Positions 20,765 to 48,167 of a stretch of DNA of 64,000 bases are shown here, piece by piece. The position numbers and the translations under genes were made by a program. The DNA lies in contig JAOTTD010000001.1 in NCBI GenBank assembly GCA_029864565.1, positions 66,232-130,231 on the forward strand, given 5' to 3'. Position 1 is the first letter of the stretch. Each line of letters starts with the position of its first letter. The notes beneath the pieces were generated by a model, which did not search any database, had not been told where the DNA came from, and worked only from the letters and a program-made list of their open reading frames with translations. This DNA comes from Thermoplasmata archaeon (GTDB lineage Archaea; Thermoplasmatota; Thermoplasmata; UBA10834).

Positions 20765-22948
20765 TCACTGCAGGACGGCTTCTAGAGGTGCAGTGGCGTT
20801 CCCCCACTCCACTTCGAGTTTCAGTACATCCTCCATGAACCAATCCTCGAGCGTCTGGCGGTCGTATTCGAGGTCGTCCAACGCCTCCTCCGCCGTCATC
20901 GATCCGTCCTTGAGGCCCAGATAGACGTCCTGGATATCGATGTAGCTCTGTGCCTGGTCGAAATCGTCGCCCCAGTACATGAAGCAGTCCATCATCTGGC
21001 CGTAGACGTCCAAGTACGCTTCCCTGCCGCAGTAGATGCCCCACTCCATGCTTCGCACGCTCTTCAATGCGGTCGCAGCCGCGCCGGTCGCGCCGCTTTC
21101 GAGCGCAAGCATGGCCGACATGACGGCTTTGTGGTCAGTCGCGTGCTGGTGAGGTCTCATGAGTGGCTCCCACGAGGCCATCATGCCTCCCTCGCCCATC
21201 GTCCACGGGATGAATATCCTCCTCGCGTCGATGACGGCGCGGTTCAGCTCGTCCGCCATCTCCACCACTTTCGCTTTCTTCTGCGGGGACATCGCGGAGG
21301 CGTACATCGCCTCAATCTCCGCGGCCCTCGCATTGATGGAGACATATAGGCTCTCGAGGTCTGTGAGAACTGCCAAGGCAGCGTCAATGGTAGAGCGCTG
21401 AGACGGCACCATGGGTCTCTCCTTCGCGAGGTTCTGAGCGGCCCAGCCACACACAGGCACGAAATCCAGCGGCAGCAGGAGCGCGTTCACCGACCTGAAG
21501 GCCATCAAAGCGGTGAGCTCCATCACCATGGCCAACATGTCCTCTGACTGCAGTTCGATGTCGTCGATCTGGGTATGATAGTACGGATCGAATCCCGCTC
21601 CCCACACCATCTCTATCGCAGTCCCTCCGCCCTTGCCCGCGAACGACCACGCGTCGGTCCAGGTCCAAACAGGCGTGTAGCAGTTCAAGACGTTCCGATA
21701 TCCCAGGTCGGAGATGGCGCTCCACACGAACGCGGAGGCCTCGATGGAGATCTCCAGCCACACCTTCCCTCCCGTCTTCGGGAAGCTGCCGCCATCGATG
21801 TTGAGCTCCAATACGAGGCCGTCCATGATATCGGGATGGGCGCATACGAATTCGTACGAGCCGATTAGCCAGTTGAACCACGTCCCGTCAGCACCGCCGC
21901 TCTCCTCCGAGCCGACCGAGCAGAACACCAAAGTCCTCTCGTTCACGTACTCGCGTGATTCTCTGGCTTCGGAGAACATCCTAGCCATCTCAAGCATGAT
22001 GGCGATGGATGAGCAGTCGTCGAACGAGCCCGCCCACCATGTGTCGATGTGGCCGGAGATGACAACGTATTCGTCAGCTCGAGTCGTGCCCAACAGAACG
22101 CCGGCGACATTCACGGATTTGGCATTTGGATAGAAGTCCACCTGGCCGGACATCTCCAGTTCGATATCGCCGTCGTACTCCTCCAGCAACGCCTGTATCC
22201 TGGCTGCGGAGTTGGGCGATATCGATATCGCCGGGATTGGCGAGAACACTGAGTCCTGCTTGATGCCCTCGGGGTGGTCGGCACCCGTGAAGTAGCCGTA
22301 GAACACGACAGCCGAGGCGCCGTGATACGCCGCCTCCGACGCTGGCACGTTGGGCCATCCCTGAGTGTTGTCCTCTCTGTGGACAAGGGCGATCGCCCCG
22401 TCAAGAGGGCCGGCCTGATCGAAATCATCGGCAGTCCCATAGCCCACATCGACGACCTTGGCAGTGAGTGTCTTCCTGTCGTCGCTATTTCCGTAAGCAT
22501 AGAGCGTGCCGTTGTCGTAGCCCCAAACCGACGGTGAATCGCCGTATGTGGTCGCATCGATGCTCTCAAGCTCGCCATCGGGCAGTACTATGTCCACCGT
22601 CGTCCCGTTATGGTCCCAGTTGGCCACTCGGAATGTCTCCCACCACACTTCGACCAGAGGCATCTCGGACAGCTGATCATACACGTATTGCTGGGCAGCG
22701 AGCTCCTCCTCCGACCCTGCAGTCTTCTCACCGAGGCCGGATAGATACTCAAGCTGAGCCCACGCATGTTCGTAGTCGAGTCTCTCGAGCAATGCAATCT
22801 CGCCATCGGTCAGGTTCTTCGGCTTCTGAGTGCCGATAGTCGGCATGCCGTAAGTCACTGGCATCGCTATGACGATTGCGAAAGTCAACGCTAATCCTAT
22901 TCCAACTAGTTTGCGAATCGGTTTCCCCCCTTGGCATAACCCCGACAT
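20765..22948 (-). CDS. Membrane-anchored M28/PA-domain peptidase (transferrin-receptor/PSMA-like architecture)
   Basis: There is an N-terminal TM segment (LVGIGLALTFAIVIAMPV). A PA-like region and M28 metal-binding motifs follow (VVISGHIDTWWAGSFDDCSS, FCSVGSEESGGADG, YYHTQID). A helical domain lies at the C-terminus. Confidence 0.65.
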   Translation of the reverse strand: MSGLCQGGKPIRKLVGIGLALTFAIVIAMPVTYGMPTIGTQKPKNLTDGEIALLERLDYEHAWAQLEYLSGLGEKTAGSEEELAAQQYVYDQLSEMPLVEVWWETFRVANWDHNGTTVDIVLPDGELESIDATTYGDSPSVWGYDNGTLYAYGNSDDRKTLTAKVVDVGYGTADDFDQAGPLDGAIALVHREDNTQGWPNVPASEAAYHGASAVVFYGYFTGADHPEGIKQDSVFSPIPAISISPNSAARIQALLEEYDGDIELEMSGQVDFYPNAKSVNVAGVLLGTTRADEYVVISGHIDTWWAGSFDDCSSIAIMLEMARMFSEARESREYVNERTLVFCSVGSEESGGADGTWFNWLIGSYEFVCAHPDIMDGLVLELNIDGGSFPKTGGKVWLEISIEASAFVWSAISDLGYRNVLNCYTPVWTWTDAWSFAGKGGGTAIEMVWGAGFDPYYHTQIDDIELQSEDMLAMVMELTALMAFRSVNALLLPLDFVPVCGWAAQNLAKERPMVPSQRSTIDAALAVLTDLESLYVSINARAAEIEAMYASAMSPQKKAKVVEMADELNRAVIDARRIFIPWTMGEGGMMASWEPLMRPHQHATDHKAVMSAMLALESGATGAAATALKSVRSMEWGIYCGREAYLDVYGQMMDCFMYWGDDFDQAQSYIDIQDVYLGLKDGSMTAEEALDDLEYDRQTLEDWFMEDVLKLEVEWGNATAPLEAVLQ

Positions 22949-24027: not shown

Positions 24028-24260
24028 CGCTAGGACGTCGAGCTTGCTCTTTATCCCCAGTCTCTCACCTCCTCCTCGAACGAACGTCGAGACAGCTTAT
24101 GAAATCGACATACAGGTACTATGGGTTTTCGGTCTCTGGGGAGGACTAAACACAATCTCGAATGGTTCCCAGATGTGCCGGGCTGATATCGAACACGCAA
24201 CCCCCAGCCGGCTTGGGCTGCGTGGAATCCACCATGAGGAAACGCTTTTGGTATACCTGC

Positions 24261-24268
24261 GTATATGG
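24261..24268 (+). promoter_or_regulatory. TATA-like element (gtatatgg) upstream of the MttB-family gene, followed by the RBS GGGGAGG at 24295-24301
   Basis: The TATA-like element is about 48 nt before the ATG at 24309. A strong Shine-Dalgarno sits 7 nt before the ATG. Confidence 0.4.
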
Positions 24269-24308
24269 GCGCGGGGATCAGAGAATTTCGATGAGGGGAG
24301 GTATCTGA

Positions 24309-25748
24309 ATGGCAGTCGCACGAATCAGATTCTTAGACCAGGACGAAGAGGAGCTCATACACCAGCAAAGCATAGAGTGCCTCGAGACAATTGGAGTGAA
24401 GGTCAAGAGCGAACGAGTCCTCGGCATGCTGAAAGAGGCCGGGGCGGCCGTAGAACCGAAGACTCAAGTGGCCAGGCTGCCAGAGAGCATGATTGAGGCC
24501 GCATTATCCAATGTTCCGAAAAGGATGATTCTGCACGGAAGGGATCCCAAGAACGACATGAGGATACCTGTCACTTCATGGCCGTACGTTGGCACATCGG
24601 GACTTGCCACATACATAATCGACGTCAAGACGGGAAAGAAGCGCGATTCGACAGTCAAGGACATCGCCGACTGCGTCAAGCTTGCCGACGGCCTGTCCGG
24701 CGTCGACTACACACAGACCTCCTTGACCGCGACGGAGGTTCCTCAGCAGACCCACGGCCTGCACGAGCTCTGGACCGCCCTGCAAAACACCACCAAGCAC
24801 GTCCAGGGCATCGAAATATTCGACGCAGAGGACGCTCGGAAGCAGGTCGAACTCGGAGCGCTGGTTGCGGGCGGCGAGGAAGAGCTGGACAAGAGGCCGC
24901 ACTTTACGGTCATTCACTGCTCGATTGCTCCGCTCATGTTCGAGCATGACGCTGTCGAGGCGATGGTCGAGTTCGCAATGGCTGGTGTGCCCATCACGAC
25001 GATGTCGATGTCACTCTCTGGTGGAACAGCACCTGTCACTCTTGCAGGAACGCTGGTGAACGCCAACTCGGAGAATCTGGCCAGCTTCGTGATTGGCCAG
25101 GCTGCGAGGAAGGGTGCGCGAACCGTATACTGCTCGTCCTCCACGCCGGTCAACATGAGCACCGGCATGATACACTACCAGAGCGCCAACCAGCCGCTGA
25201 TAGCGGCTGGGCTAGCCCAGATGGCTCGACGGTACGGCCTCCCTTGCATGGTCGGCGATTGGGGCCTCAATGACACGGATGTCCCAGGATTTCCGCACAC
25301 ATTCAGCGAGACCATGGGGATTGCACTCAGCACTATGTCTGGAACGGACATGATGGGAGGCGTTGGGTCGCTGGACAACGCCAAGGGCATGGCGCTCGAG
25401 CAGGAAGTCATCGACTCCTACGTCTGGGAGAATGTGCGGATGCAGATGACTCCTTTTGAGATCAGCAAGGCGACCGCTGCACTCGATGTGATTAGGGAGG
25501 TCGGGCACGGCAACACATTCCTCACCAACATCCACACCGCACGCAACTTCCGAAGGGAGGCTATCCAAAGAGACTCTGACAAGGGCAGGTTCGAATCCAC
25601 CATGTCTAAGGCGATGGTCGCGGAGGCAAAGGAAATCGCGGTGAGGCTCCTCAGGGAGCACGAGGTTACGCCGTTGGAGGAATCCGTCGTCCGGCAGGGC
25701 AACGAGCTGATAAAGAACTTCGAAAAGGAACGGATCAGACGCGCGTAA
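24309..25748 (+). CDS. MttB-superfamily (trimethylamine methyltransferase-like, COG5598) methyltransferase, non-pyrrolysine
   Basis: The 479-aa ORF is continuous with no in-frame amber. It shows MttB-family similarity along its whole length. The sizes and gene order match MtgB/MtpB-type quaternary-amine:corrinoid methyltransferases. Confidence 0.8.
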   Translation: MAVARIRFLDQDEEELIHQQSIECLETIGVKVKSERVLGMLKEAGAAVEPKTQVARLPESMIEAALSNVPKRMILHGRDPKNDMRIPVTSWPYVGTSGLATYIIDVKTGKKRDSTVKDIADCVKLADGLSGVDYTQTSLTATEVPQQTHGLHELWTALQNTTKHVQGIEIFDAEDARKQVELGALVAGGEEELDKRPHFTVIHCSIAPLMFEHDAVEAMVEFAMAGVPITTMSMSLSGGTAPVTLAGTLVNANSENLASFVIGQAARKGARTVYCSSSTPVNMSTGMIHYQSANQPLIAAGLAQMARRYGLPCMVGDWGLNDTDVPGFPHTFSETMGIALSTMSGTDMMGGVGSLDNAKGMALEQEVIDSYVWENVRMQMTPFEISKATAALDVIREVGHGNTFLTNIHTARNFRREAIQRDSDKGRFESTMSKAMVAEAKEIAVRLLREHEVTPLEESVVRQGNELIKNFEKERIRRA

Positions 25749-25769
25749 TCGCGGACGACAACAACCGTC

Positions 25770-26390
25770 TCAATCATCGGGGTCGATCTGATTGGGCATA
25801 TCGAGGCCGGTTGATTTCTCCGGCGAGTCCTGGAATGGCTTTCGGACAAGTCTGTACGCCACGAAGCCGAGCACAATCGCGGCCGAGGCGAATGCGGCGA
25901 GAGGTACGATCCATGACAACTGTCCTCCCAGAGAATCATCGTCGCTGAATTCCTGCATCAAGTCGTCGTACTCCCCGCTCGACCTAGGCGTGAGCAACGA
26001 GTCGTCGCCTGTCTGAACCATCACGCCCACAGCCAGGAAGAACACGGCCGCAAGAAGGACGATCCACGTCGCAGAGAGCACGATGACTATCCGCGTGTTC
26101 TCGTTGGGCGCCATCAGATCTCGCGCCTTCCATGTGAGGCCGTAGTACACGAAACCGTGGTCCTCGTGACGCTTAACAAGCCCGCCCTCCTCCATCTTCT
26201 TGAGGTGGCGATGTATAGCTCCCTTGTCTATCCCCAGCTCCTCGGAGAGCTGCGAGACGGTCCTGCGCATGGGATGAAGGGACTTGAGCATCTCGAGGCG
26301 GGTGTCCGAGGCTAGGGCGAATAAGGACTTCTTGTCAAGCTCCACGCGCATTTCCCTGGCACCTAACCAGGGTATGGAATCCCTGACCAT
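25770..26390 (-). CDS. Membrane-anchored winged-helix (ArsR-like) transcriptional regulator
   Basis: An HTH is present (VSQLSEELGIDKGAIHRHLKKMEEGGLV), followed by two TM helices. The start is uncertain; the ORF track extends to 26450. Confidence 0.55.
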   Translation of the reverse strand: MVRDSIPWLGAREMRVELDKKSLFALASDTRLEMLKSLHPMRRTVSQLSEELGIDKGAIHRHLKKMEEGGLVKRHEDHGFVYYGLTWKARDLMAPNENTRIVIVLSATWIVLLAAVFFLAVGVMVQTGDDSLLTPRSSGEYDDLMQEFSDDDSLGGQLSWIVPLAAFASAAIVLGFVAYRLVRKPFQDSPEKSTGLDMPNQIDPDD

Positions 26391-26456
26391 AAACTTCGCC
26401 TCCCTTGGCGGCCGCCAGCCAGCGTCAGCAGAAGCCAATTCTGAACACACCTCTCC

Positions 26457-28283
26457 CTATCCGTACCATTCGCGGTATTCCGGCGTGTAGAACGTCAACG
26501 ACCCCAGCTCGGACAGGTCGGCGAGAGAGCTGGCCACGACGGCCGTGCGGGAAACCGTGTAGAGCGCGTCGTCTATGTACAGCGACCGTGTAATCCTGCC
26601 GTATTGGTCGAGGGAATCATGTGATATCTTCCCCCAGAGGAATATGCCCTCCTCGGCAGACACATTGAAGGCCCAGGCTGCCGACTGGTAAGAGTAGTCA
26701 ACCGTGTAGTCGTATGTTGTGATTGGAATCACCAGCAGGGACCTTGCAGGATCGTACAGCATCGCCTTATGGTCGCTGCTGACAGGCGTCCATGACATAT
26801 CATCCGCCACGTAGCTGTCCTTCTCAATCGGCATTGCAGGGTCGGAGACATCGAATAGGGACAGCTTGACGTGACCGTCCTGGCTGCCTATGCCTATCAC
26901 CAAACCGTCGCCGATTGGATGCAGGTAAGATGAGAAACCAGGGATCTTGAGCTCGCCCACCACGACAGGTGCGATGGGGTCGCTCAAGTCGATGACGAAC
27001 AGCGGATCGACCTGTCTGAACGTAACGAGATAGAGTGTGTCGCCGAGGAACCGCGAAGCATAGATGCGTTCCGTTGGAGCTAATCCTTCCAGCGACCCAA
27101 TGATCGACAGGTCTGATCCGAGGACGTACACATTGTTCTCTGACTCCATCCAAGATGTCGTTGTAGCCACCCTGAGCATTCCGTCCATCTCGTCCATTGA
27201 GAACTGGTTCAGCAGCCAGCCCTTCACATTGCCCGTGGCAACGGCCTCCATCGTCAGCCTGTCGACGGCAATCTTGTGTATCGTGGTTCTTGTGGTACTT
27301 TCGTCCTCTGCAGCGGCCTCTCCATCGACCCACAACAGTTCGCCGACCCACTTACGATAGGTAAGGTACATGGCATCTTGGGACATGTAGACAGTTGACG
27401 CAAAGCCCGTGATCACAGACATCTCCCTGTGCTTGCCATCCGACGCGTCAACGGCCATCAGGTTCACGAAGGCGTCCGTGCACTGAGTCTCGCCATCGTA
27501 ATGCACTTTGTCGATGTCGAACTCCTTGCGGGAATCCCGGTTCCATGCATTCGGAACCGATATCCTGTCGTCCACCTCATATATCCCCCATTGGGCCACG
27601 AGGTAGACGACGCCGTCAATCATTCTAGAAGTCAGATGCCACCCCGATACCCCGATCGAGAAGTCCAACTGCGGGGCAGAAGGCTCGGTCAGGTCGAAGA
27701 CCGAGACAATGGCCCTATGGTGGTTCACTATGCGCGTGGTGGGTTGCACAAAGTACCAAAACTCCTCAGTCTCTTCGTACTCGTACACGTTAGACACGAC
27801 GACTAGCTTGCTGCTCCAAACGTACACCCCGGAGACGGAGAGACTCACATCGTTCGGCTCGAATCCGAGTATCTCGCCTGCCCCGATCACCGCGATGGCC
27901 TCCATGCTGTCCTCTGGTTGCGCATCGATGATCGTCACATCCCCGTTCGAGACGACAAAGATATGTTCTCCATCGGTCTTCACCAAATCGGCCTCGTCGA
28001 CGCCGTATACTTGGACGTTCGTCGTTGAGTAGGAGCTGGAGCCGTCCATTGCAGCCGGGGTCAGGAGCTCCCTTGTTTCCGGAGAATACGTCGCGTACTC
28101 CCCATCGTTCCTAGTGGCGTCGATGAAGCTCTGCAACTCTCCGTAGGATGAGAACTGGGCGAGGCTGCCATCGGACGAAATCGAATACTCATCGCTTTCT
28201 CTGAGCGCATAGGCAATCGTCCCTCCGGTGACGACGACCGAGGCGACGCACAGGACCAGCGCGGCTTTGAGGTAATTGTCCAT
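26457..28283 (-). CDS. Secreted/anchored beta-propeller-domain protein
   Basis: An N-terminal TM/signal (MDNYLKAALVLCVASVVV) is followed by about 580 aa that look like a repeat-rich beta-propeller protein. The start is set at the internal Met preceding the TM. Confidence 0.5.
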   Translation of the reverse strand: MDNYLKAALVLCVASVVVTGGTIAYALRESDEYSISSDGSLAQFSSYGELQSFIDATRNDGEYATYSPETRELLTPAAMDGSSSYSTTNVQVYGVDEADLVKTDGEHIFVVSNGDVTIIDAQPEDSMEAIAVIGAGEILGFEPNDVSLSVSGVYVWSSKLVVVSNVYEYEETEEFWYFVQPTTRIVNHHRAIVSVFDLTEPSAPQLDFSIGVSGWHLTSRMIDGVVYLVAQWGIYEVDDRISVPNAWNRDSRKEFDIDKVHYDGETQCTDAFVNLMAVDASDGKHREMSVITGFASTVYMSQDAMYLTYRKWVGELLWVDGEAAAEDESTTRTTIHKIAVDRLTMEAVATGNVKGWLLNQFSMDEMDGMLRVATTTSWMESENNVYVLGSDLSIIGSLEGLAPTERIYASRFLGDTLYLVTFRQVDPLFVIDLSDPIAPVVVGELKIPGFSSYLHPIGDGLVIGIGSQDGHVKLSLFDVSDPAMPIEKDSYVADDMSWTPVSSDHKAMLYDPARSLLVIPITTYDYTVDYSYQSAAWAFNVSAEEGIFLWGKISHDSLDQYGRITRSLYIDDALYTVSRTAVVASSLADLSELGSLTFYTPEYREWYG

Positions 28284-28476
28284 GGTAATCGAAACACCAT
28301 TCGGCGCCGGCGTATTTATATGCCATTTTCTCGTTGACTTCGAAGTCAACGTCTCTGGCTAGGCATCGCTTCCGCAGTTCTCACGCGTCGTCAGAAGCCG
28401 ACGTTCAGAAGCCGTTGGCTGAGCAGACAAGAATCTAATACCGCCACGTGGTTTCCTCATGACGGGTACCTGCGAG

Positions 28477-29523
28477 ATGTCGGAACGTCCTTCGAGAAAC
28501 ACGATTCATCGCATATTGGTGGGCAATTCACAGGAGATGAAGGAGGTCGAGTCGGCGTCCGTCGACCTCGTGGTGACCTCTCCGCCATACCCGATGATTG
28601 AGATGTGGGACGAGACCTTTTACCTGCTCAACAGAGACATAAGAGGGAGGATGCGGCAGGACGACGGGAGGGGTGCCCACGAACTGATGCATGATGAGCT
28701 CGACGCGGTGTGGAGAGAGGCCGATCGCGTGCTAAAGGACGGGGCCGTTGCATGCATCAACATCGGAGACGCCACCAGGACCATCGGAAGCCAGTTCCAG
28801 CTCTTCCCGAACCACACACGTGTGACTGAGCGATTCCGAGAGCTTGGATTCTTCAGCCTGCCATCCATCATCTGGAGGAAGCCCACAAACGCGCCGAATA
28901 AGTTCATGGGGTCTGGCATGCTTCCGCCAGGAGCGTACGTTACTTTGGAGCATGAGCACATCCTCGTATTCAGGAAGGGAGAGAGGCGGCGATTCGCTTC
29001 GGAGGCCGAGAAGGCCAACAGGAACGAGAGCGCCTTTTTTTGGGAGGAGAGAAACCTGTGGTTCTCGGATGTATGGACGAATCTCCGAGGAGTCAGTCAG
29101 AAGCTCGACCGCGACAATATCAGGAGGAGGAGTGGTGCGTTTCCGTTCGAGCTGCCGTACAGGCTAATCAATATGTACTCGGCGAAGCTCGACGTCGTAC
29201 TAGACCCGTTCCTCGGAACAGGGACAACGACGCTTGCGGCCATCGCATCCGCGAGGAACAGCATCGGGTATGAGATGGAGGGAGCCCTGCTTGGAGTTGT
29301 GAAAGAGAGGCTCGCCGGATTCGAGGACATCGCCAACGATTACATCGGCTGTAGGATCGCCGCACATAACGAGTTCGTCGCAGGACGGGATTGCGGGTTC
29401 GCCAACGAGCCTCACGGCTTCCGATGCACGAGCGCTCAGGAGACGGGCATGAGGTTCGATCACTTGGACTCCGTGGACGCGGCCGACCTCACAAACATCA
29501 GGGCCGTCTACAGTGAACTCTGA
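28477..29523 (+). CDS. DNA methyltransferase, N6-adenine/N4-cytosine (beta class), apparently orphan
   Basis: Motif IV (SPPYP) is N-terminal and motif I (DPFLGTGTT) is C-terminal, which is the beta-class order of PF01555. A C-terminal extension of about 100 aa is present. No restriction-endonuclease-like ORF is adjacent. Confidence 0.8.
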   Translation: MSERPSRNTIHRILVGNSQEMKEVESASVDLVVTSPPYPMIEMWDETFYLLNRDIRGRMRQDDGRGAHELMHDELDAVWREADRVLKDGAVACINIGDATRTIGSQFQLFPNHTRVTERFRELGFFSLPSIIWRKPTNAPNKFMGSGMLPPGAYVTLEHEHILVFRKGERRRFASEAEKANRNESAFFWEERNLWFSDVWTNLRGVSQKLDRDNIRRRSGAFPFELPYRLINMYSAKLDVVLDPFLGTGTTTLAAIASARNSIGYEMEGALLGVVKERLAGFEDIANDYIGCRIAAHNEFVAGRDCGFANEPHGFRCTSAQETGMRFDHLDSVDAADLTNIRAVYSEL

Positions 29524-31539: not shown

Positions 31540-32934
31540 CTAAGGTTTGTCAAGTTCCGATGGCTCCAGCTTCAAGCCGATGGCAGCCATGTCCCGCTTG
31601 TACCTCTTGATGAGCGCGGCGTATTCCTTGCTCGGCCTCCTCTTCGTGGCGTTCCAGCACTCCTGGAGCGGCTTGCCGAGAGGCGGCGATGTGAGCTTGC
31701 GCTCGTACTTCTTCAGCAGCTTCTTGGCCATCTCGTTCGCGTCGGACCGCTTCATCCCAGCGACGGCGTGTCCTACCTCGGCCGATATCCTCGGCTCGAC
31801 CGGCGTTACACGATCCTCGTACTTGTTCGTCGCGACCCCGACAGATTCCATCGACAATCCGGAGACGACGGCGGCCATGACAGAGGCGGATGTCTCGTAC
31901 AGGCACATTGGCGTGCACGGACCCGCTGCAGTGTAGTTGAGGCTTATGCTGAGCAGATCGGTGTTTCTGCTTATCGCCTGCCCCATTGTGCTGATGGTCC
32001 ACAGCATCTCCCTGCTGCTGTTGGATACGTAGCGGAGATGCAGAGGGAACGGTATGAGATAGCTCGTCTGCAGCGTGAGCACGCCCATCAGGTGCGTCGC
32101 CACCGTCCCGACCGCAGTGCCCTCGGGTCCGCCCGAGTAACCCCCCAGCAACGGCGAGAAGTCCATACCGATCGGAGCGCCAATAGAATGCGCGATGACA
32201 GCCTTGTTCAGCCTGGCGAAGTCTACCTTCATAGGGTCCATGCTGGCAATCATGAATCCGTCGGACGGTCTGAGGCCGAACCTCGGATGAACAGCCGCGG
32301 CGAGCGATACGTCGGACTCCGCCGTTGCGAGCGTGTTCATGAAGGGCTTGCCCTCCCGGCCCACTCGATTGCACGCCTCCCTGCCCAATGTGGCGTTCCT
32401 CATCGTCGCATAGAGCTCCAGAGGCGAAGCGGGTCTCACACGCATTCCGCTGACCCTAGTTAGCGCGGGCGTGGTAATCGAGTTGGTCTGCGGTATCTCC
32501 GCGAAGCCTTCCATCAGCGTCAGGAACGACTCGTCACTGGAGACTGGCCCTCCGGCAGCCCCCAACAGGCACCATGGCGGTGTCTTGTCCCCGATCTTCC
32601 TGGGGACCATCGCTTTCCTGTCACGGCCTTCACCGAAGAACACCTTGGATGGCGCGTTCCGCAATGCCTCGCGCACTTCGGATTCGGTAAAGGATATCAC
32701 CCTGCTGCTGTCCATACAGTACGCGCCCACATCGACCAAGAGTTCGAGGCCTGCCTCGAAAAGGTCGTCTGCGATGGAGTTTTCGTTCGGGATCGGATTC
32801 TCCGAATCGAACTCTATCTTGTACTCCCTGACCTTCTCCGCCACCTTGGGGGCGTATCTCCTCAGCTGATAGTCGTTCTCACTCAACGGAACGCCGTTGA
32901 GAGCCTTCTCCATGACATCGAGTACTTGCACCAT
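31540..32934 (-). CDS. Monomethylamine methyltransferase MtmB homolog, full-length, without pyrrolysine
   Basis: Blocks match MtmB along the full length: DDLFEAGLELLVDVGAYCMDSSRV, GEGRDRKAMVPRKIGDKTPPW, LGGYSGGPEGTAVGTVATHLMGVL, AGPCTPMCLYETSAS and GKPLQECWNATKRRPSKEY. The frame is uninterrupted over 464 codons. ATG at 32934 follows a GGGGGA RBS. Confidence 0.8.
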   Translation of the reverse strand: MVQVLDVMEKALNGVPLSENDYQLRRYAPKVAEKVREYKIEFDSENPIPNENSIADDLFEAGLELLVDVGAYCMDSSRVISFTESEVREALRNAPSKVFFGEGRDRKAMVPRKIGDKTPPWCLLGAAGGPVSSDESFLTLMEGFAEIPQTNSITTPALTRVSGMRVRPASPLELYATMRNATLGREACNRVGREGKPFMNTLATAESDVSLAAAVHPRFGLRPSDGFMIASMDPMKVDFARLNKAVIAHSIGAPIGMDFSPLLGGYSGGPEGTAVGTVATHLMGVLTLQTSYLIPFPLHLRYVSNSSREMLWTISTMGQAISRNTDLLSISLNYTAAGPCTPMCLYETSASVMAAVVSGLSMESVGVATNKYEDRVTPVEPRISAEVGHAVAGMKRSDANEMAKKLLKKYERKLTSPPLGKPLQECWNATKRRPSKEYAALIKRYKRDMAAIGLKLEPSELDKP

Positions 32935-33006
32935 CACATATCCCCCTGGCTCCTAAGGCCGAACACGACAGAGCTTGTACGAGATAAAACCTTTGTCATC
33001 CAGGGT

Positions 33007-33774
33007 TCAAAACAGGATCGAAAGACATGTGAGCGCGCCGTCGCACTTCTCAAATTCGCTGACATCCACGGGTATCACTTTGAACCCGGCGCTCTCCACC
33101 AGGCGCTGCGATTCCCTGCGGCCCGCTGGCATGAGGACGGTGTCGTCGATTGCGAGGGTGTCGGCGGCGTACTCCTCCCCCTTTGGGACGACGATGACGT
33201 CCATGCCACGCAAAGCGGGATGGTTTGAGTACTTCTCCGTGGCTATGAGGGTCCCCTCTCCGAGGTAGGTCACGTGACTCTTCAGATGCATCATCTCCTC
33301 ATCCTCGATCGCATCGACCTTCACAGCGAGCCACTCACCCATCAGACGGATCCCTTCGGCGTTCGTACGCTGGCTCAGACCGCTGATCAGGCGATCGGGA
33401 AGATGCACGACGTCGCCTCCTTCCACAGTCGCAGGAGCCTCAGCCCGCCTGGTGGAGAGGTAGTCCTCCAGCTTAGCCTCCACCGCGTCTTCCTCTCCCC
33501 TCCGACTGGGCGCGCCCATCCGGGTGATGAGCGCCTTTGGCCCATGCACAACTGCGCAGTCCTCGACGAAACACGAATCCGGGTGAAAGTCATCCTGCGG
33601 AAGCACGATGACTTCCAGGCCGAGGTCTGCGAGGATCGCTTTGTAGACCGCATGCTGCTCGCGAGCTTTCTTCAGGTCTACCGTGCCGCGCATCGGATGG
33701 CATGACAGACATTTGACATAGTTCGCACCCGGAGGGCGGATGAGCGCCTTTCTGTACTTCATGATTATCACCAA
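33007..33774 (-). CDS. Dimethylarginine dimethylaminohydrolase (DDAH)-like amidinohydrolase (guanidino-group modifying superfamily)
   Basis: At 255 aa, the C-terminal ...KCDGALTCLSILF matches the DDAH catalytic-Cys motif (G-x-L-T-C-C/L-S). The N-terminal half resembles DDAH/amidinotransferase. It lies 72 nt upstream of the MtmB-like gene. Confidence 0.65.
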   Translation of the reverse strand: MVIIMKYRKALIRPPGANYVKCLSCHPMRGTVDLKKAREQHAVYKAILADLGLEVIVLPQDDFHPDSCFVEDCAVVHGPKALITRMGAPSRRGEEDAVEAKLEDYLSTRRAEAPATVEGGDVVHLPDRLISGLSQRTNAEGIRLMGEWLAVKVDAIEDEEMMHLKSHVTYLGEGTLIATEKYSNHPALRGMDVIVVPKGEEYAADTLAIDDTVLMPAGRRESQRLVESAGFKVIPVDVSEFEKCDGALTCLSILF

Positions 33775-39172: not shown

Positions 39173-39346
39173 GGAGCGTCAGAAACATGACGGAGATATT
39201 AAACAGATATGATTCTACAGCCGTTCGAACCGCGCAGCCCTTTGACGCAAATATTACGAACAATCGACCCATTCGTCCCACGTACCCCAAACGCTTTTAT
39301 ATCCTGTGGCAATTCGTTCGATTCGGTTTTGGGGAGGCAGGCTGAC

Positions 39347-41143
39347 ATGAAGGTACTGAGAGTCGATTTGACGACGAGCAAGTTCGTCGATCAGGAGATT
39401 TCTGAGGAGCATCAGAAGGCATATCTAGGCGGCAGAGGACTCGGGGCGAAGATCCTGTACGACGAGAACAAGCAGGGCATAGACGCGTTCGACCCGGAGA
39501 ACAGACTGATATTCATTTCAGGACCGTACACCGGAACCTTCGGCTCATTCACGGCGTTCTACAACGTCACCACGAAATCCCCTCTTACAGGGACGATTCT
39601 GTCGGCACACTCGGGAGGCCACTGGGGGCCGATGCTGAGAAAGACTGGGTATGACGGCATCGTGTTAGTCGGTCGCGCGCCGAGGCCAATGTATCTCCTT
39701 CTGACCGACGACGGGCCCGAGCTGAGAGATGCTGAGGACCTATGGGGAAAGGATGTCTTCGTAACAATCGACATGCTCGAGGAGCGGCACCAGCGAGCGA
39801 AGGCGGCTGTGATAGGACCTGCCGGGGAGAAGCGATCGCGCATCGCGGCGATAATGAACGACCACCACCGAGCTGCTGGTCGTGGCGGCGCCGGAGCGGT
39901 TATGGGTTCGAAGAATCTCAAGGCGGTCGTAGTTCACGGCACCAAGGATGTTCCTCAGGCCGACCCCGAGAAGCTAAAGGAGTCGTTCAAGGCGGCCACG
40001 AAGACCGTGAAGGAGAAATCGGCAGCCTTCGCGAAGTACGGGACCTCGATGGTCGTAGGCATAACAGGAAAGGCTGGCGCGATACCTACCAGGAACCTCC
40101 AGACGGGCTACTTTCCCGATTTCGAGAAGATCGGTGGTGACGCGCTGATAGACGGCCACTTCGTGAAGAACATGGCATGCGCCAGATGCCCGCTCCACTG
40201 TGGAAACGCGACGAAAGCTGAGAAGGATTACCAAGTCGAGACCGAGGGACCTGAGTACGAGACGCTGGCCATGTTCGGCGCCAACCTGGAGAACTCCAAC
40301 CTCGAATCGATCATCATGTCGAATAACATATGCAACCAGTACGGTATAGACACGATATCTTGCGCTGACACCATCGCATGCGCCGTGGAGCTGTTCGATA
40401 GAGGGATCATATCTGAGAAGGACACAGGCGGGCTCGCACTCTCGTGGGGCGACCACAGATCGATCGTGAAGCTCGTCGAGATGACCGGCAGGTCCGAGGG
40501 GTTCGGGGTGTTGATCGGAGAAGGTTCCAGGCGCCTGGCCGCTCGGTTTGGCGAGGAGGCGGAGAAGTGCGCCATGAATGTAAAGGGCATGGAGTTCCCT
40601 GGATACGACCCACGTGGGATCCAGGGCATGTCGCTCGCGTTCGCCACATCCACCAGAGGCGCGTGCCACCTAAGGGCCACGATGTACGTCCCCGAGCTGT
40701 TCCAGGGCGTCCTCGACAGGTTCACAGTCAAGGGGAAGGCGTCGACGCTGAAGGAACTGCAGGAGCTCTTCACGGTCCTCGACTGCATGGTGTTGTGCAA
40801 GTTCGGCGCCAGGAACGCTTTCGGCAACTCATGGGACGACATGGTGATGCTTGTCAACGCGGCGACGGGCCGAGGCTACACAGTCGACGGGCTCAAACAA
40901 GTGGGCGAGAGGGTCTGGACCATCGAACGGCTGTTCAACTTGAGAGAAGGGTTCTCAAAGCGTGACGATACCCTGCCCGAGCGGCTCTTCGACACGCCGA
41001 TACACGATGGTCCCTCGAAGGGCGCCGTGGTCAATCGTGACGATTTCATCAACGAACTTGAGGCATACTACGCCCTCTGGGGCTGGTCGGCGGAGGGCGT
41101 ACCGAGCAAGGAGACTCTGCAGCGGCTAGGGCTGGCGTTATGA
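39347..41143 (+). CDS. aor: Aldehyde:ferredoxin oxidoreductase (tungsten-containing AOR family)
   Basis: It starts MKVLRVDLTT...YLGGRGLGAKILYDE, as AORs do. The [4Fe-4S]/pterin-binding region (CARCPLHCG..., ...STRGACHLRATMY...) is present. GGGGAGG lies upstream of the ATG at 39347. Confidence 0.85.
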   Translation: MKVLRVDLTTSKFVDQEISEEHQKAYLGGRGLGAKILYDENKQGIDAFDPENRLIFISGPYTGTFGSFTAFYNVTTKSPLTGTILSAHSGGHWGPMLRKTGYDGIVLVGRAPRPMYLLLTDDGPELRDAEDLWGKDVFVTIDMLEERHQRAKAAVIGPAGEKRSRIAAIMNDHHRAAGRGGAGAVMGSKNLKAVVVHGTKDVPQADPEKLKESFKAATKTVKEKSAAFAKYGTSMVVGITGKAGAIPTRNLQTGYFPDFEKIGGDALIDGHFVKNMACARCPLHCGNATKAEKDYQVETEGPEYETLAMFGANLENSNLESIIMSNNICNQYGIDTISCADTIACAVELFDRGIISEKDTGGLALSWGDHRSIVKLVEMTGRSEGFGVLIGEGSRRLAARFGEEAEKCAMNVKGMEFPGYDPRGIQGMSLAFATSTRGACHLRATMYVPELFQGVLDRFTVKGKASTLKELQELFTVLDCMVLCKFGARNAFGNSWDDMVMLVNAATGRGYTVDGLKQVGERVWTIERLFNLREGFSKRDDTLPERLFDTPIHDGPSKGAVVNRDDFINELEAYYALWGWSAEGVPSKETLQRLGLAL

Positions 41144-41420
41144 TCGCCCAGTAGCCCTTCCACTATTCCCCAACAAAGGAGGGGCTGAGGAGTACAAGCC
41201 TACCTACGATCCTCTGGCGAAGTGGGCTTCCGAGAAGGGATTCGAATGGGTCGGCCCGCCGGTCTAGACATACCCCAAGAAACCAGAGGTCGTCGATGCC
41301 GGGATTATCCTACGTGCCAAGGCCATGGCTCCCGTCAGGAAGAGGTGACCGCATCTGAGCTGATAGGCTTGAAGCCCGACGATTCAGTGTCCGTTATCAG
41401 AATTGATACCCTCCCCACCG

Positions 41421-41431
41421 CGATATATAAA
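41421..41431 (+). promoter_or_regulatory. TATA box (cgatatataaa) about 30-40 nt upstream of the ABC ATPase start
   Basis: An AT-rich octamer in GC-rich DNA is preceded by the BRE-like ccaccgcg. Confidence 0.5.
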
Positions 41432-41456
41432 CCATCGCTGCGCTAAGACGGGACAG

Positions 41457-42380
41457 GTGTCTCCTTTGATAGAAGCCAACGGCCTCTGCAAGGATTACAG
41501 GCAGGTTAGAGCGCTCGACAACGTCAGCCTCCGTGTGGGAAGGGGAGAGATCTTCGGATTCTTCGGACCGAACGGAGCCGGCAAGACCACGTGCATCAAG
41601 GTGCTGTGCGGTCTCACGGCCGCAACTGGTGGCGACGCGTCGGTGATGGGCATCGACGTCGGCAGGGCGCCTGTGCACGTGAGGGACAACATCGCAATAC
41701 TGTCCGAGGAGAGCAGGTTCTACGAGGAGATGACCCCGAGACGCTACCTGAACATGTTCGGCAAGTTCATGCTAATGAACCGGCCTGAGAGGCTCTCCGC
41801 CCTCAACAAGGCGGCCGACCTGGCGGACATAAGGCCTTTCATTGACAGAAGGATCGCCAACCTGTCGATGGGACAGCGTCAGAGGGTGTCACTCGCCAGG
41901 GTGCTCATGTCGGATGTGCCGCTCGTGTTCCTCGACGAGCCATTCGAGGGCGTGGACATCATCCACAGGAAGAGGCTGAGAGAGCATTTCAGGGAGTACG
42001 TCTCCAGGGGCAACACGGTATTCTTCACCTCCCACAATCTGATCGAGGCGGAGCATATCGTCGACAGATTTGCGTTCATACATCACGGAAAGCTCATCGC
42101 AATCGGCACGGCGGAGGAGCTTAAGGAGAAGTACCTCGCGCCGTCGTACATGCTGCATGTGTCTAACCCCCAGAAGGCCAGAAAGGTCCTGGACGACAAC
42201 CTCCGACTCCAGTCCATCAGCATCGTCGAGGGCAACGTCTCCGTCGTGCTCGCCCGTAGGGGCCACGCCTCGGAGATCGCGAAGCTGCTGATACGCGAGA
42301 ACATCGACCTCTACGAGATGAAGTCGGTGGGGACCATGGAGGAGGTATTCGAGAGGACGACCAGGGGTGATATCCAATGA
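41457..42380 (+). CDS. ABC transporter ATP-binding protein (ABC-2 / exporter type)
   Basis: It has Walker A (GPNGAGKTT), LSMGQRQR and Walker B (LDEPFEGVD). It overlaps the downstream permease by 4 nt. The start codon is ambiguous (GTG 41457 or TTG 41466). Confidence 0.85.
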   Translation: MSPLIEANGLCKDYRQVRALDNVSLRVGRGEIFGFFGPNGAGKTTCIKVLCGLTAATGGDASVMGIDVGRAPVHVRDNIAILSEESRFYEEMTPRRYLNMFGKFMLMNRPERLSALNKAADLADIRPFIDRRIANLSMGQRQRVSLARVLMSDVPLVFLDEPFEGVDIIHRKRLREHFREYVSRGNTVFFTSHNLIEAEHIVDRFAFIHHGKLIAIGTAEELKEKYLAPSYMLHVSNPQKARKVLDDNLRLQSISIVEGNVSVVLARRGHASEIAKLLIRENIDLYEMKSVGTMEEVFERTTRGDIQ

Positions 42381-44251
42381 ACATGGATATTCCACCGCCG
42401 CCCGAGGACGACTCCGAGCTTCCGCCGCCGCCGGCCGAGATCGCAGAGCAGACCCACCACTACCCGAAGATCGAGGTGCAAAAGTCAGGGCCGCTCGACA
42501 CGATCAAGAGGGCCGTCGTGATATTCGAGAAGGACATCAGAACGATGGCCAAGCACGGTCTGGCTAGCTCGGTGATACTGTTCGTATTCCTTCTGATTAT
42601 ATTCTCGATCATGAGCTTCGCAATGAAGCAGGCGATGAGCTTCGACATCGGGGCTATGATGGACGGCGACGAAATCGATGTGCCATGGGCTACGGAGAGC
42701 AATCCGCCTGTCGCAGACGCTGGATACGACAGGTCGATACCTGCTGGCACGACCATAACCCTAGACGCATCTGGCTCGTACGACGACGATCGGATCGTTC
42801 ACTACCAGTGGTCGTTCTGGGAGGTGGACTACAACGTGGACTTGTTCGGCGAGAGAGTAGACTACACATTCAACTACGTTGGGACCTACGAGATTCGCCT
42901 AACAGTCGCAGACTTCTCGATCAACCAGGCGGAGGACAACTTGACCATCACGGTCATGCACGCCACCTCGGACACTGAGGCGCCTTGGGTGGACTATCTT
43001 CAGAACGTTGAGGCCGAAGTCGACGATACCGTAGACTTGGCCGCTGTCAACTCAACGGACAACGTAGGTGTCATCAACTGGACCTGGGTCGTCCACGATG
43101 TTGTGCAGACGAAGCTCTACGGAGAGCAAGTGAGCCACACCTTCCCGTACGCCAGCCACGGGAGCCTCGGCGTCACGCTGATACTGAGAGACGCCTCGGG
43201 GAACTACAACAACTACTGGTTCGGAGTCACCGTGTACCCGCGGTATGAGGACGACGACTGGCCATGGGCTGAGGTCAACGAGCCTGGAATCGTGGCCCTC
43301 GGCGATGCGGTGACGCTCGACGGCACGGGCTCGGGCGATGATTCCGGCTCAATCGATACCTACACATGGTACATACTCCACAACGGCACCTACACGATGC
43401 TCACTGGGCAGACGGTTGAGCTCACGCCGGCCGAATGGGGTTGGTACGAAGTCATGCTAATAGTCCGCGACGAGGCGGGAAACTACAATGACGAATGGGC
43501 AGCCAGGACTGGGTTCATCGTCGCGCCGTCAGGTGTCGACGAGGTCAACGCGATAACCTGGAAGAGCACACCCTTTGGAATCGATGTGTCGTTCCACCTC
43601 CTCACGTACGCGTACGGTGTTGCTCTGCTTACGTCCGTGATTTTCGTCGGTGGACTATTCGCGAAGGGCTTCTCGCACGAGATACAGAAAGGCACGATCA
43701 AGGTCCTCTTCTTCGGACCCATATCCGTGACGACCACGATCTTCTCCAAAATACTCTACCCGATTGTTGTCGGACCGTTCCTCATCTTCCCGCTGACCAT
43801 GGCGGTTCTCGCGACCTTTGAGCAGGACCCTGGAGAGGTATTCGTGATAACCCTCGTGGCGTACCTGCTCGCGGTCACGACCATGGTCGCTGCGGCGTAC
43901 GGTTCTAGTCTCATATACGTGGCGACGAAGAGGATGGTGCTCAAGCCGACCGTGATATCCAGGATGTTCCTGTACTTCTCGCTCCTCGGCACCATGACGG
44001 TGTTCGAATGGCTATCGCTCGTGATGGACCTTTGGTTGAAGGTCGACACCTATGGCGACCTGTACTATGCTCACGGCGGTACCGTCGCGCTGCTGTCCCC
44101 GTTCCACCAGGGAGGGGTGTACCTGTCGAGCCTAATCATGGAGACATCGCAGAGCCCCGATTGGTGGGTGTTCGCTATACCGTTCGTGCTCATTGGGCTT
44201 GGCATAGTCGCATCCAGGAAGCTGTATCCCGACCTGTTCTCCAGGGAATAG
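42377..44251 (+). CDS. ABC-2-type permease with ~300-aa extracellular insert containing three PKD-like repeats
   Basis: An N-terminal Pro/Glu-rich tail and TM1 are followed by three repeats of the PKD-type pattern (VADAGYDRSIPAGTTITLDASGSYDDDRIVHYQWSF, VNSTDNVGVINWTWVV...TLILRDASGNYNNYWFGVTV, LDGTGSGDDSGSIDTYTWYI...VRDEAGNYNDEW). Five or six C-terminal TM helices of ABC-2 type follow. Confidence 0.7.
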   Translation: MNMDIPPPPEDDSELPPPPAEIAEQTHHYPKIEVQKSGPLDTIKRAVVIFEKDIRTMAKHGLASSVILFVFLLIIFSIMSFAMKQAMSFDIGAMMDGDEIDVPWATESNPPVADAGYDRSIPAGTTITLDASGSYDDDRIVHYQWSFWEVDYNVDLFGERVDYTFNYVGTYEIRLTVADFSINQAEDNLTITVMHATSDTEAPWVDYLQNVEAEVDDTVDLAAVNSTDNVGVINWTWVVHDVVQTKLYGEQVSHTFPYASHGSLGVTLILRDASGNYNNYWFGVTVYPRYEDDDWPWAEVNEPGIVALGDAVTLDGTGSGDDSGSIDTYTWYILHNGTYTMLTGQTVELTPAEWGWYEVMLIVRDEAGNYNDEWAARTGFIVAPSGVDEVNAITWKSTPFGIDVSFHLLTYAYGVALLTSVIFVGGLFAKGFSHEIQKGTIKVLFFGPISVTTTIFSKILYPIVVGPFLIFPLTMAVLATFEQDPGEVFVITLVAYLLAVTTMVAAAYGSSLIYVATKRMVLKPTVISRMFLYFSLLGTMTVFEWLSLVMDLWLKVDTYGDLYYAHGGTVALLSPFHQGGVYLSSLIMETSQSPDWWVFAIPFVLIGLGIVASRKLYPDLFSRE

Positions 44252-44309
44252 GCGAGAGGGGCAAGAGAAGGAAAAGGTTTGGCGCGAGATAGGCTGCGAT
44301 GAGCTGCTC

Positions 44310-44759
44310 CTACAGGGCATCGAGCCTGGCCTTGTTAGCCTCGTTCTCCTTGCCCATCCTCTCCAGTATCCTCGCGGCCTCGGCGAGCAGTGACTTCGCG
44401 GTCTTGGACGAATCCAAGTAGAATCTGGACGAAGTCAGCTCGACCTTCCCAGCAAACTCCTTCGCGCCGGCCACGTCGACGCCGGCGGGCACCTCTGTCT
44501 CTATCACGTAGTTGCTGCTGTCGATATCCTGGATGGGTTCGAGTATCATCTCGTTGAGCTTCTCCCTCCGGGTGTGTTCGAGGATGTCGCTGCGTTTCCT
44601 ATGGGAGTCCGCCAACGCCTTCAGCGGTTCCTTGGTCGACGCGAGTTCGGGCCTGGCAGCAAGGTCGTCGTATATCGCCGACGTCGCTTTCTCGAGTTCC
44701 AGGGCGAACCTGATCACGGAGCCGAAGGATGTGCACTCCGGGAACTCGTACTCGGCCAT
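44310..44759 (-). CDS. Hypothetical protein (helical, acidic)
   Basis: The start is set at MAEYEFPECTSFG. The upstream part of the ORF-track frame is Arg/His-rich and abuts the mmsA stop. Confidence 0.4.
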   Translation of the reverse strand: MAEYEFPECTSFGSVIRFALELEKATSAIYDDLAARPELASTKEPLKALADSHRKRSDILEHTRREKLNEMILEPIQDIDSSNYVIETEVPAGVDVAGAKEFAGKVELTSSRFYLDSSKTAKSLLAEAARILERMGKENEANKARLDAL

Positions 44760-46240: not shown

Positions 46241-46718
46241 ACTCTCTATTCTCCTTCCGATTGCGCTATCCGTCAGCCACCGCTTGCATTGCAGCAAGCG
46301 AATCCACGCATCTCGAGACATCAAATCGCATTTTGAGAAGGTAGCCGCGATTGAAACTTGGCTTTGACTCTCCCCCACGATGCCGTCGATTGCGGCGCAT
46401 CAGCCGAGCCGTCCAATTTTATTAGGATGTTTTACAGCTTTTCGGCTCGAAATTCGCCAATGTGCCAGTGATTGTGGCCCTATTTGCGGTGTATGTTCTT
46501 CATCGCTATATAGGTTTTCATTCTGGCTTCGCCTGCAAAGAATTTGTTAACACTATGTGAATATTAATCTGGACAAACGCGTTGACGGACGGTGTTCGAA
46601 CGGCCGCATCCGATAATCGGAGTGCATGCCCTTTGAGGGTGTGAAAGAGGGTGCGACTCCCTATTGGAGATAGAGAAATCGTAATGGGTTTCACAAATGG
46701 TTTGACCGAACGCGAGGC

Positions 46719-48083: not shown

Positions 48084-48167
48084 CTTCGTCGCACTCCTTA
48101 TTGTCATACTTGCTGGAATGAAATCAGGCAAAGGGTTTGACTGCGACCACGCCGCGAATGCGGCGGG

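Follow-up and report, generated by a model that had tools for sequence, protein, structure and literature searches.

All characterised members of the MttB superfamily are substrate:corrinoid methyltransferases (PMC13080624, PMC12155760, PMC9842639). Among them are the pyrrolysine (Pyl)-containing trimethylamine (TMA) methyltransferase MttB of Methanosarcina barkeri (PDB 7xcl and 7xcn) and the non-Pyl MtgB of Desulfitobacterium hafniense (2qne and 9yce), which carries a Leu at the Pyl position, within a G-L-N-D motif, and whose gene adjoins those for a corrinoid protein, MtgA and RamA. The glycine betaine ligands of MtgB have been validated experimentally, with Y97 and F356 providing cation-pi contacts and R312 and H348 binding the carboxylate (PMC13080624). 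R312, which forms a salt bridge with the acidic group of the substrate, is reported to be conserved in all characterised members, including MtpB, MtcB, MtyB and MthB, a statement that we take from that study (PMC13080624), and Tyr364 is reported to be conserved in all Pyl-MttBs (PMC9842639). Several paralogs can share one corrinoid protein: MtpB, MtcB and MtyB of Eubacterium limosum all methylate a common protein, MtqC (PMC12155760), and in Ruegeria pomeroyi, the separate ORFs for the PF06253 proteins, MtgC and MtgD show no linkage, and one MtgC serves up to seven MttB paralogs (PMC12478193).

Non-Pyl mttB genes have also been described in UBA10834/Gimiplasmatales and RBG-16-68-12 MAGs (Zinke et al.; mSystems 2024 Slate River study), and in the former lineage they, like non-Pyl mtmB genes, are reported with only part of their partners. 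The situation noted in a sequence-only reading of the DNA analysed here, an mttB-like gene without a partner, is thus already known from this lineage. Furthermore, some MAGs of the order Gimiplasmatales reportedly contain mttC or mtbC genes, and the second methyltransferase (MT2) has been reported missing from the MAGs of this order. The gene examined in this work is of the same kind, from the same lineage and with the same incomplete set of partners; one member of its clade comes from isolate UBA10834 (L011), and another (L010) from a MAG with an isolate name (OBJ_...) similar to the label of a Slate River site. The published descriptions are at the annotation level, whereas the subfamily signature, the pocket comparison and the neighbourhood census come from the present analysis. 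What is specific here is a strongly constrained subfamily with its own pocket signature; the protein entry, the superfamily and the occurrence in the lineage were known.

The MttB-like gene (24309..25748, + strand) lies in a 64,000-nt stretch of a Thermoplasmata archaeon contig (hereafter, the window) and is an ORF with an ATG start, a TAA end and no internal stops. The encoded 479-aa protein matches the PF06253 MTTB profile with 216 bits, against a cut-off of 25, over residues 4-463 (profile positions 29-487 of 500), and aligns over its full length with MttB (7xcl, 213 bits) and MtgB (159 bits), so that the previous assignment to the MttB/COG5598 family as a non-Pyl member holds. The dN/dS values for seven orthologue pairs are 0.045-0.13, and the gene is an intact, functional, Pyl-free member of the superfamily under strong constraint. 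The AlphaFold2 (AF2) model of the protein (pLDDT 79.8, pTM 0.83) predicts an MttB-type TIM-barrel fold, with Foldseek TM scores of 0.77-0.79 to 7xcl (0.78 for MttB), 9yce, 2qne and 4yyc, and 0.53 to MtmB; the low-confidence segments of the model, 235-242 and 381-427, correspond to the mobile loop and the dimerisation loop.

An NCBI entry from a Thermoplasmata MAG is 100% identical to this protein, and more than 120 clusters match it at 68-100% identity. Two closed genomes, CP070736.1 and CP070748.1, carry orthologues with 85-87% identity. The clade was monophyletic in 50/50 bootstraps of a neighbour-joining (NJ) tree, with neither MttB nor MtgB as its sister and with MtgB ranking 174th of 178 sequences by distance, in a tree that is rough, with a biased taxon sample and without the MtpB, MtcB and MtyB sequences. 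We conclude that the gene belongs to a monophyletic, Thermoplasmata-specific subfamily with a pocket signature of its own.

The signature loop, D317-W318-G319-L320-N321-D322 (25257..25274, + strand), is defined by the clade alignment. Leu320 (CTC, 25266-25268) aligns with Pyl334 of 7xcl; all 118 clade sequences have D317, G319 and N321, and 109 of them carry W at position 318, the other 9 Y. Trp318, which precedes the Pyl position and has no counterpart in MttB, is a one-residue insertion (130 of the 142 superfamily representatives have a gap there); conserved and close to Leu320, the Pyl equivalent, it may serve as a cation-pi ligand. Met314 (25248..25250, + strand), retained in 117/118 clade sequences, aligns with Arg312, the carboxylate ligand in MtgB, and with Tyr329 of MttB, with pairwise and multiple alignments in agreement, and Gly350 (25356..25358, + strand; G 101, C 9, S 8 in the clade) aligns with Tyr364 of MttB and His348 of MtgB. 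F356 of MtgB is replaced by Ala358, and the equivalent of Y97 is Ser97 or Gly98, non-aromatic either way, in a loop that aligns ambiguously. None of the known substrate-binding residues is retained. Met249 of MttB is kept as Met234, invariant in the clade, and Gly95-Thr96 aligns in the pairwise alignment with the Gly110-Thr111 corrinoid contact of MttB, which is probably kept, although the loop aligns ambiguously between the pairwise and multiple alignments. The S-L-S-G-G-T-A-P loop is also invariant in the clade, and together with Met234 it corresponds to the region of MttB that moves upon MttC binding. A recent point mutation from TAG to Leu as the origin of the Pyl-free state was considered and rejected, given the CTC codon and the non-sister position of the clade relative to Pyl-MttB.

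No B12-binding Pfam match was found in the 50 ORFs scanned in the window, no DxHxxG..SxL..GG motif in its six frames, and nothing better than E=0.07 in a tblastn search of the window with five corrinoid domains, which were real domains recovered from PDB alignments and cross-detect at E<=6e-11 as a positive control. The lack of a corrinoid gene in the window, noted previously, is therefore confirmed, and it extends to the flanks: the contig ends only ~2.5 kb past the right end of the window, the leftward extension of ~8 kb contains no corrinoid gene, and no carrier, MT2 (pterin-binding or URO-D type) or RamA was seen in the window or the ~11 kb beyond. Across the clade, 0 of 61 loci (637 kb) have a corrinoid carrier within 10 kb, and none accompanies the paralog arrays of up to five MttB-like genes. 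Two 213-aa genes that follow the MttB array in L018 were considered as divergent corrinoid proteins and rejected, as they lack the DxHxxG motif, have no Pfam, NCBIfam or PDB match and show no similarity to B12 domains. The sole B12-like tblastn match, in L064, is a B12-binding radical-SAM enzyme and not a carrier; this gene shows that B12 is used by at least one organism carrying the clade. The absence of a neighbouring corrinoid gene is normal for the MttB family and not anomalous, because paralogs share one corrinoid protein, which is unlinked in Ruegeria; the premise of the sequence-only reading, that these enzymes always work with a dedicated corrinoid protein, does not hold for the E. limosum and R. 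pomeroyi paralogs. These systems match the missing local partner found here but are bacterial, with known acidic quaternary-amine substrates and Arg312 retained, unlike the archaeal clade with its Met314.

By analogy with the characterised enzymes, we consider that the protein probably acts on a methylated amine, as the substrate-specific first methyltransferase (MT1) in a modular methyl-transfer system that depends on a corrinoid. This reading is favoured because the superfamily members characterised to date all belong to that enzyme class, because Met234 and, in the pairwise alignment, the Gly95-Thr96 corrinoid-docking residues are kept, because common and sometimes unlinked corrinoid partners are documented and the L064 organism uses B12, and because some MAGs of the order reportedly carry mttC or mtbC; the paralog arrays, with divergent pocket residues, would fit a battery of substrate-specific MT1s. 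Counting against it are the absence of a carrier, MT2 and RamA from the window and its flanks, the lack of a carrier near all 61 clade loci, the reported lack of MT2 in the order, the replacement of the known substrate-binding residues, and the ambiguous alignment of the loop that contains the equivalent of Tyr97 of MtgB and Gly110 of MttB. The TIM-barrel pocket would bind the methylated amine and present one N-methyl group to a Co(I) corrinoid, which would sit on a carrier protein that is probably common to the paralogs and whose gene would lie at another place in the genome; a second methyltransferase would then move the methyl group to a carrier of the folate or pterin type. Of the three explanations offered previously, a distant corrinoid partner has the best support, the others being direct transfer to another acceptor and a non-methyltransferase function.

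These two other explanations, together with the use of free cobamide, amount to an enzyme that works without a corrinoid carrier, which we regard as improbable. The absence of a carrier near the 61 loci, in the arrays and on ~75 kb of the gene's own contig would fit such an enzyme, as would a pocket remodelled relative to every characterised member and the MT2 reported missing in the order. However, our literature search found no corrinoid-independent PF06253 member, lack of linkage is normal for the family, the region that moves on MttC binding is conserved, and corrinoid proteins have been reported elsewhere in genomes of the order. Similarly small is the chance that this Thermoplasmata subfamily either has dispensed with a dedicated corrinoid protein, using free cobamide or a non-canonical acceptor, or demethylates a new class of substrates. 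The latter might involve a non-carboxylated amine that loses its N-methyl groups step by step, with the product passed to a class-III aminotransferase; such an aminotransferase is divergently encoded beside the clade gene in 10 loci.

It is likewise improbable that the protein is a methyltransferase for glycine betaine, like MtgB, or for another acidic quaternary amine, as are MtpB, MtcB and MtyB. Annotation transfer gives non-Pyl MttB homologs such a function by default, sediments are rich in betaines, and the G-L-N-D motif at the Pyl position is common to the clade and MtgB. Nevertheless, three of the four MtgB ligands are clearly replaced and the fourth, Y97, falls in the ambiguous loop, the Arg reportedly kept by all characterised members is a Met in nearly the entire clade, and MtgB is distant from the clade and not its sister. 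With the Arg, His and Phe of MtgB replaced by Met314, Gly350 and Ala358, the substrate is probably not glycine betaine or another carboxylate-bearing quaternary amine.

Downstream of the MttB-like gene, and convergent with it after a 21-nt spacer, lies a gene for a membrane-anchored ArsR-type winged-helix (wHTH) protein (25770..26390, - strand), for which the mechanical ORF extends to 26450 but the likely true start is the ATG at 26390, preceded by AAGGGAGG. As the sequence-only reading had described, the protein combines an ArsR-like domain (HTH_5, 44.8 bits, aa 46-98, E=1e-11; HTH_20, 42.8 bits; both above cut-offs) with two hydrophobic, predicted transmembrane segments (aa 121-147 and 178-202); NCBIfam metalloregulator models score below their cut-offs, so that metal sensing is not implied. 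A dedicated role for this protein in regulating the MttB-like gene, as implied previously, is very unlikely. The two genes are adjacent in 4 of the 32 loci of at least 8 kb, but these four (L001, L005, L015 and L024) are the closest relatives and have a ~30 kb syntenic block in common, and the regulator is absent from every clade locus at 67-83% identity. The wHTH gene shares its strand with the upstream gene for a Beta_propel protein (PF09826, 465 bits, with an N-terminal hydrophobic anchor; 26457..28349, - strand), which ends 66 nt before the wHTH ATG, and wHTH homologs at 52-56% identity immediately follow a Beta_propel gene in neighbourhoods without MttB, as in L021 (4-nt overlap) and L022. 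The conserved pairing, with or without MttB, is that with Beta_propel; the wHTH gene belongs with the Beta_propel gene in a separate module and not with the MttB system, so that it would stand outside the methyl-transfer system proposed above.

The least probable reading, a true TMA methyltransferase, has in its favour that the best solved-structure and NCBIfam matches are to MttB and that JGI names clade members "trimethylamine--corrinoid protein Co-methyltransferase", but can hardly be upheld for a protein that has neither Pyl nor Tyr364, with no in-frame UAG and a Leu codon three changes away from TAG, that scores 368.8 bits with the TIGR02369 equivalog model (cut-off 525), and whose clade is not sister to MttB, in a window where TAG serves as a normal stop codon for 9 of 44 genes and which contains no tRNA genes.

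Additionally, the window contains the MtmB-like gene recognised in the sequence-only reading (31540..32937, - strand), an uninterrupted non-Pyl homolog that matches PF05369 with 324 bits and MtmB (1l2q) with 233 bits; Pyl202 of MtmB aligns to Met200, and the gene itself ends in TAG.

Among the "methylotrophy" genes annotated in metagenomes from sediment and soil, non-Pyl MttB homologs are some of the commonest; one study detected them in 17% of its MAGs, and they are routinely mislabelled as TMA methyltransferases. An abundant clade lacking Pyl and at least three of the four glycine betaine ligands warns against predicting the use of TMA or glycine betaine from annotation. The hosts of this clade are protein-degrading, non-methanogenic relatives of Methanomassiliicoccales, and identification of the substrate and partners would clarify whether they have a part in methylated-amine cycling; the D-W-G-L-N-D signature, with Met314 and Gly350, could guide the search for the substrate. 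The missing adjacent corrinoid gene and the adjacent regulator are not surprising in themselves.

The MttB-like gene carries its own strong Shine-Dalgarno sequence, as noted previously: GGGGAGGT (24295..24302, + strand), read from the sequence 6 nt before the ATG, is the longest match among the 44 ORF-called starts in the window, where the core reaches 5 nt or more in 8 further genes, and a GGAGG-like core is conserved upstream of the orthologues as well. The TATA-like element previously placed upstream of the gene exists, as GTATATGG at 24262-24269, but the element conserved in the relatives is another one, AAACGCTTTTggTATAC at 24240-24256, just left of position 24261, at which the sequence-only reading began. 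This putative BRE/TATA-like promoter motif, AAACGCTTTTGGTATAC (24240..24256, + strand), aligns as AAAcGCTTTTnnTATAC in L001, L005, L006, L002, L003 and L007, with divergent intergenic DNA on either side. The conservation suggests a promoter role, such that the MttB-like gene would be transcribed alone from this motif and its mRNA translated from the strong Shine-Dalgarno sequence. No promoter was found in a scan for bacterial-type promoters and terminators, and the sole terminator-like site in that scan lies after the upstream tautomerase gene.

The MttB-like gene (24309-25748, + strand) runs from ATG to TAA over 479 aa with zero internal stops, and a Shine-Dalgarno (SD) sequence, GGGGAGGT (24295-24302, +), ends 6 nt upstream of its ATG, as the sequence-only reading had described. 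Alignment with the upstream regions of relatives showed that the SD core is kept; SDs as such are not rare in the window (core of at least 5 nt at 9/44 ORF-called starts), and the match of the MttB-like gene is the longest. The TATA-like element proposed earlier, GTATATGG, is present at 24262-24269 (+), but the element conserved in that alignment is instead the BRE/TATA-like AAACGCTTTTggTATAC at 24240-24256 (+). Membership of the MttB family was confirmed by Pfam (PF06253, MTTB, residues 4-463, 216 bits vs cut-off 25), and the NCBIfam MttB equivalog model scored 369 bits, under its 525-bit cut-off. The closest solved structure is the pyrrolysine (Pyl)-containing Methanosarcina barkeri MttB (7xcl, 213 bits), followed by MtgB (159 bits) and the Sinorhizobium meliloti homolog 4yyc (108 bits); the AlphaFold model (pLDDT 79.8, pTM 0.83) resembles all three alike (TM 0.77-0.79). 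In an exhaustive representative search, the superfamily comprised 5,239 clusters, about 70 of which outscore MttB against the query protein. In a rough NJ tree, the Thermoplasmata-specific clade holding the query was monophyletic in 50/50 bootstraps and closest to tandem paralogs from the same lineage; MttB (distance rank 68) was not its sister, nor was MtgB (rank 174). Because dN/dS against seven orthologues is 0.045-0.13, we consider it a working gene.

As noted previously, the window contains no corrinoid protein: Pfam searches of 50 ORFs, a six-frame motif scan and tblastn using five genuine corrinoid domains as queries were all empty, and the ~11 kb of the same contig that adjoins the window likewise holds no carrier. 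Across 61 non-redundant clade loci (637 kb in total), the same probes, which find one another at E<=6e-11, gave only one match, in locus L064, which was rejected as a carrier. It is a B12-binding radical-SAM protein (PF02310 + PF04055; L064 1422-2789), encoded on the same strand as the clade MttB gene and two genes upstream of it, and the only B12-related gene found in these loci. The earlier premise that such enzymes always have a dedicated corrinoid protein does not hold: in Eubacterium limosum, MtpB, MtcB and MtyB have one corrinoid protein, MtqC, in common (PMC12155760), and in Ruegeria pomeroyi, the PF06253 genes are unlinked to MtgC and MtgD, each a separate ORF, and a single MtgC serves up to seven paralogs (PMC12478193). 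Thus, the missing local carrier is not anomalous. Met249 of MttB, which moves upon MttC docking (PMC9842639), is retained as the invariant Met234, and the MttB corrinoid contact Gly110-Thr111 aligns pairwise with Gly95-Thr96, from which we infer that the corrinoid-facing architecture is retained. With moderate confidence, we favor a reading in which the protein would be the substrate-specific first methyltransferase of a modular corrinoid system, acting on a methylated amine; its carrier would be unlinked and probably shared. A carrier-independent enzyme, or one with different chemistry, would fit the empty neighborhoods but not the retained corrinoid-facing residues, and appears unlikely.

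Equally improbable is an enzyme for glycine betaine or another acidic quaternary amine. The position of MttB Pyl334 is Leu320 (codon CTC) in the alignment, and MtgB likewise has Leu there; however, of the validated glycine-betaine ligands of MtgB, Y97, F356, R312 and H348 (PMC13080624), the last three correspond to Ala358, Met314 and Gly350, and Y97 falls at Ser97/Gly98 in an ambiguously aligned loop. R312 is reported to be conserved in all characterized quaternary-amine members (PMC13080624), whereas 117/118 clade sequences have Met. The clade carries its own signature, D317-W318-G319-L320-N321-D322, in which Trp318 is an insertion absent from 130/142 representatives. Judging from these residues, the substrate of the enzyme would be neither TMA nor glycine betaine nor any other carboxylate-anchored betaine.

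The convergent gene (25770-26450, −) encodes, as first described, an ArsR-type winged helix (HTH_5, aa 46-98) with two hydrophobic segments (aa 121-147 and 178-202); its true start is probably the ATG at 26390, preceded by AAGGGAGG. The proposal that it regulates the MttB-like gene is very doubtful. The two genes adjoin, and the 21 nt between them contain no terminator-like feature, but the pairing is confined to the closest relatives (4/32 loci of at least 8 kb), which have a syntenic block of ~30 kb in common. In loci L021 (52% identity) and L022 (56%), where no MttB gene lies nearby, a homolog of the regulator directly follows a Beta_propel (PF09826) gene encoded on the same strand, and this pairing recurs in the window (Beta_propel at 26457-28349, −, the wHTH ATG 66 nt further on). 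Hence the regulator is part of a Beta_propel-wHTH module, and its position beside the MttB-like gene is incidental. This conserved two-gene module (window 26457-28349 and 25770-26390, both −; L021 4079-6666; L022 4109-6621), consisting of an N-terminally anchored Beta_propel protein followed by the wHTH protein with two TM helices, looks like a membrane-tethered signaling pair. For the regulator, 514 homologs were found at E<=1e-5, and all that are named come from Thermoplasmata-type MAGs. Between the Beta_propel and transporter genes lies an N6/N4 DNA methyltransferase (28459-29523, +; 73-76% identity in syntenic relatives) without an obvious restriction partner.

Other neighbors recur more widely. 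A class-III aminotransferase matching the NCBIfam PRK07046 transaminase (L002 8505-9716, 585 bits; also L009, L031, L032, L034, L036, L038, L039, L059 and L067) is encoded divergently and directly adjacent to the clade gene in 10 loci, ~150-220 bp upstream of it. As a partner it is much better conserved than the wHTH regulator; the window yielded no orthologue of it. In 14/61 loci the clade gene is accompanied by additional MttB paralogs, in runs of as many as five; these include tandem arrays of three to five genes in divergent relatives (L019 854-8581, L018 1786-6166, L017 8563-14620), none with a corrinoid gene beside it. These paralogs differ at pocket positions (e.g. 320-322 = VDG, VNG, VND, SGA or IDP), which suggests substrate diversification. 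An unannotated soluble family of ~213 aa, with zero Pfam, NCBIfam or PDB matches, accompanies clade genes in 10/61 loci (e.g. L018 6239-7518, L012 3060-4861, L007 13588-14193, L046, L060 and L064), in places as paralogs, and is missing from the window. An M28/PA (TFR-dimer type) peptidase is found in 9/32 loci of at least 8 kb (window 20765-22948, −; also L008, L016, L017 and L019 3-803, the last directly upstream of the five-gene array), well outside the close synteny group, and could reflect residual synteny or a functional link.

A true TMA methyltransferase, despite MttB being the nearest solved structure, is scarcely credible: besides Pyl, the query lacks Tyr364, which is conserved in all Pyl-MttBs and whose Y364F mutation abolishes most of Vmax (PMC9842639), Gly350 occupying this column, which is also that of MtgB His348. 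The MtmB-like gene reported in the window (31540-32937, −) is indeed present, uninterrupted and likewise non-Pyl, with Met200 at the Pyl202 position and TAG as its stop. It directly adjoins a dimethylarginine dimethylaminohydrolase (DDAH)-like gene (33007-33774, −), and both genes are kept in L001, L005 and L015 (88-92% and 73-76% identity, respectively). Since DDAH frees mono- or dimethylamine from methylarginines, there may be a functional link between the two genes. No non-Pyl MtmB had a published function until 2026 (MtqB, tetramethylammonium/choline; PMC13044021).

The window is archaeal, as it encodes TBP, family-B polymerase, Pus10, L15e, RIO1 and DUF655. The exact query protein is already in NCBI on a ~132-kb contig, with the window lying at one end, and orthologues at 67-91% identity are numerous, clustering at 90% identity giving more than 120 groups. 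Among them are those from the two closed chromosomes CP070736.1 and CP070748.1, from isolate UBA10834, and from a MAG with an isolate name (OBJ_...) similar to a Slate River site label. Non-Pyl mttB genes have been described in UBA10834 (Ca. Gimiplasmatales) and RBG-16, whose MAGs contain mttC or mtbC in some cases and a recognized second methyltransferase in none (bioRxiv 10.1101/2020.03.09.984617; PMC11264602). The gene represents an uncharacterized subfamily of a well-known superfamily, and genes of this kind have already been reported in the lineage. Many peptidase and amino-acid catabolic genes are present in the window, densely packed at 1-22948 and 39209-49565: two C11 clostripain-like and two M28 peptidases, an S8 subtilase, an Opp-type ABC transporter, agmatine deiminase with CN-hydrolase, aldehyde:ferredoxin oxidoreductase, aldehyde dehydrogenase and two class-III aminotransferases, a predicted set consistent with a peptide-fermenting lifestyle.
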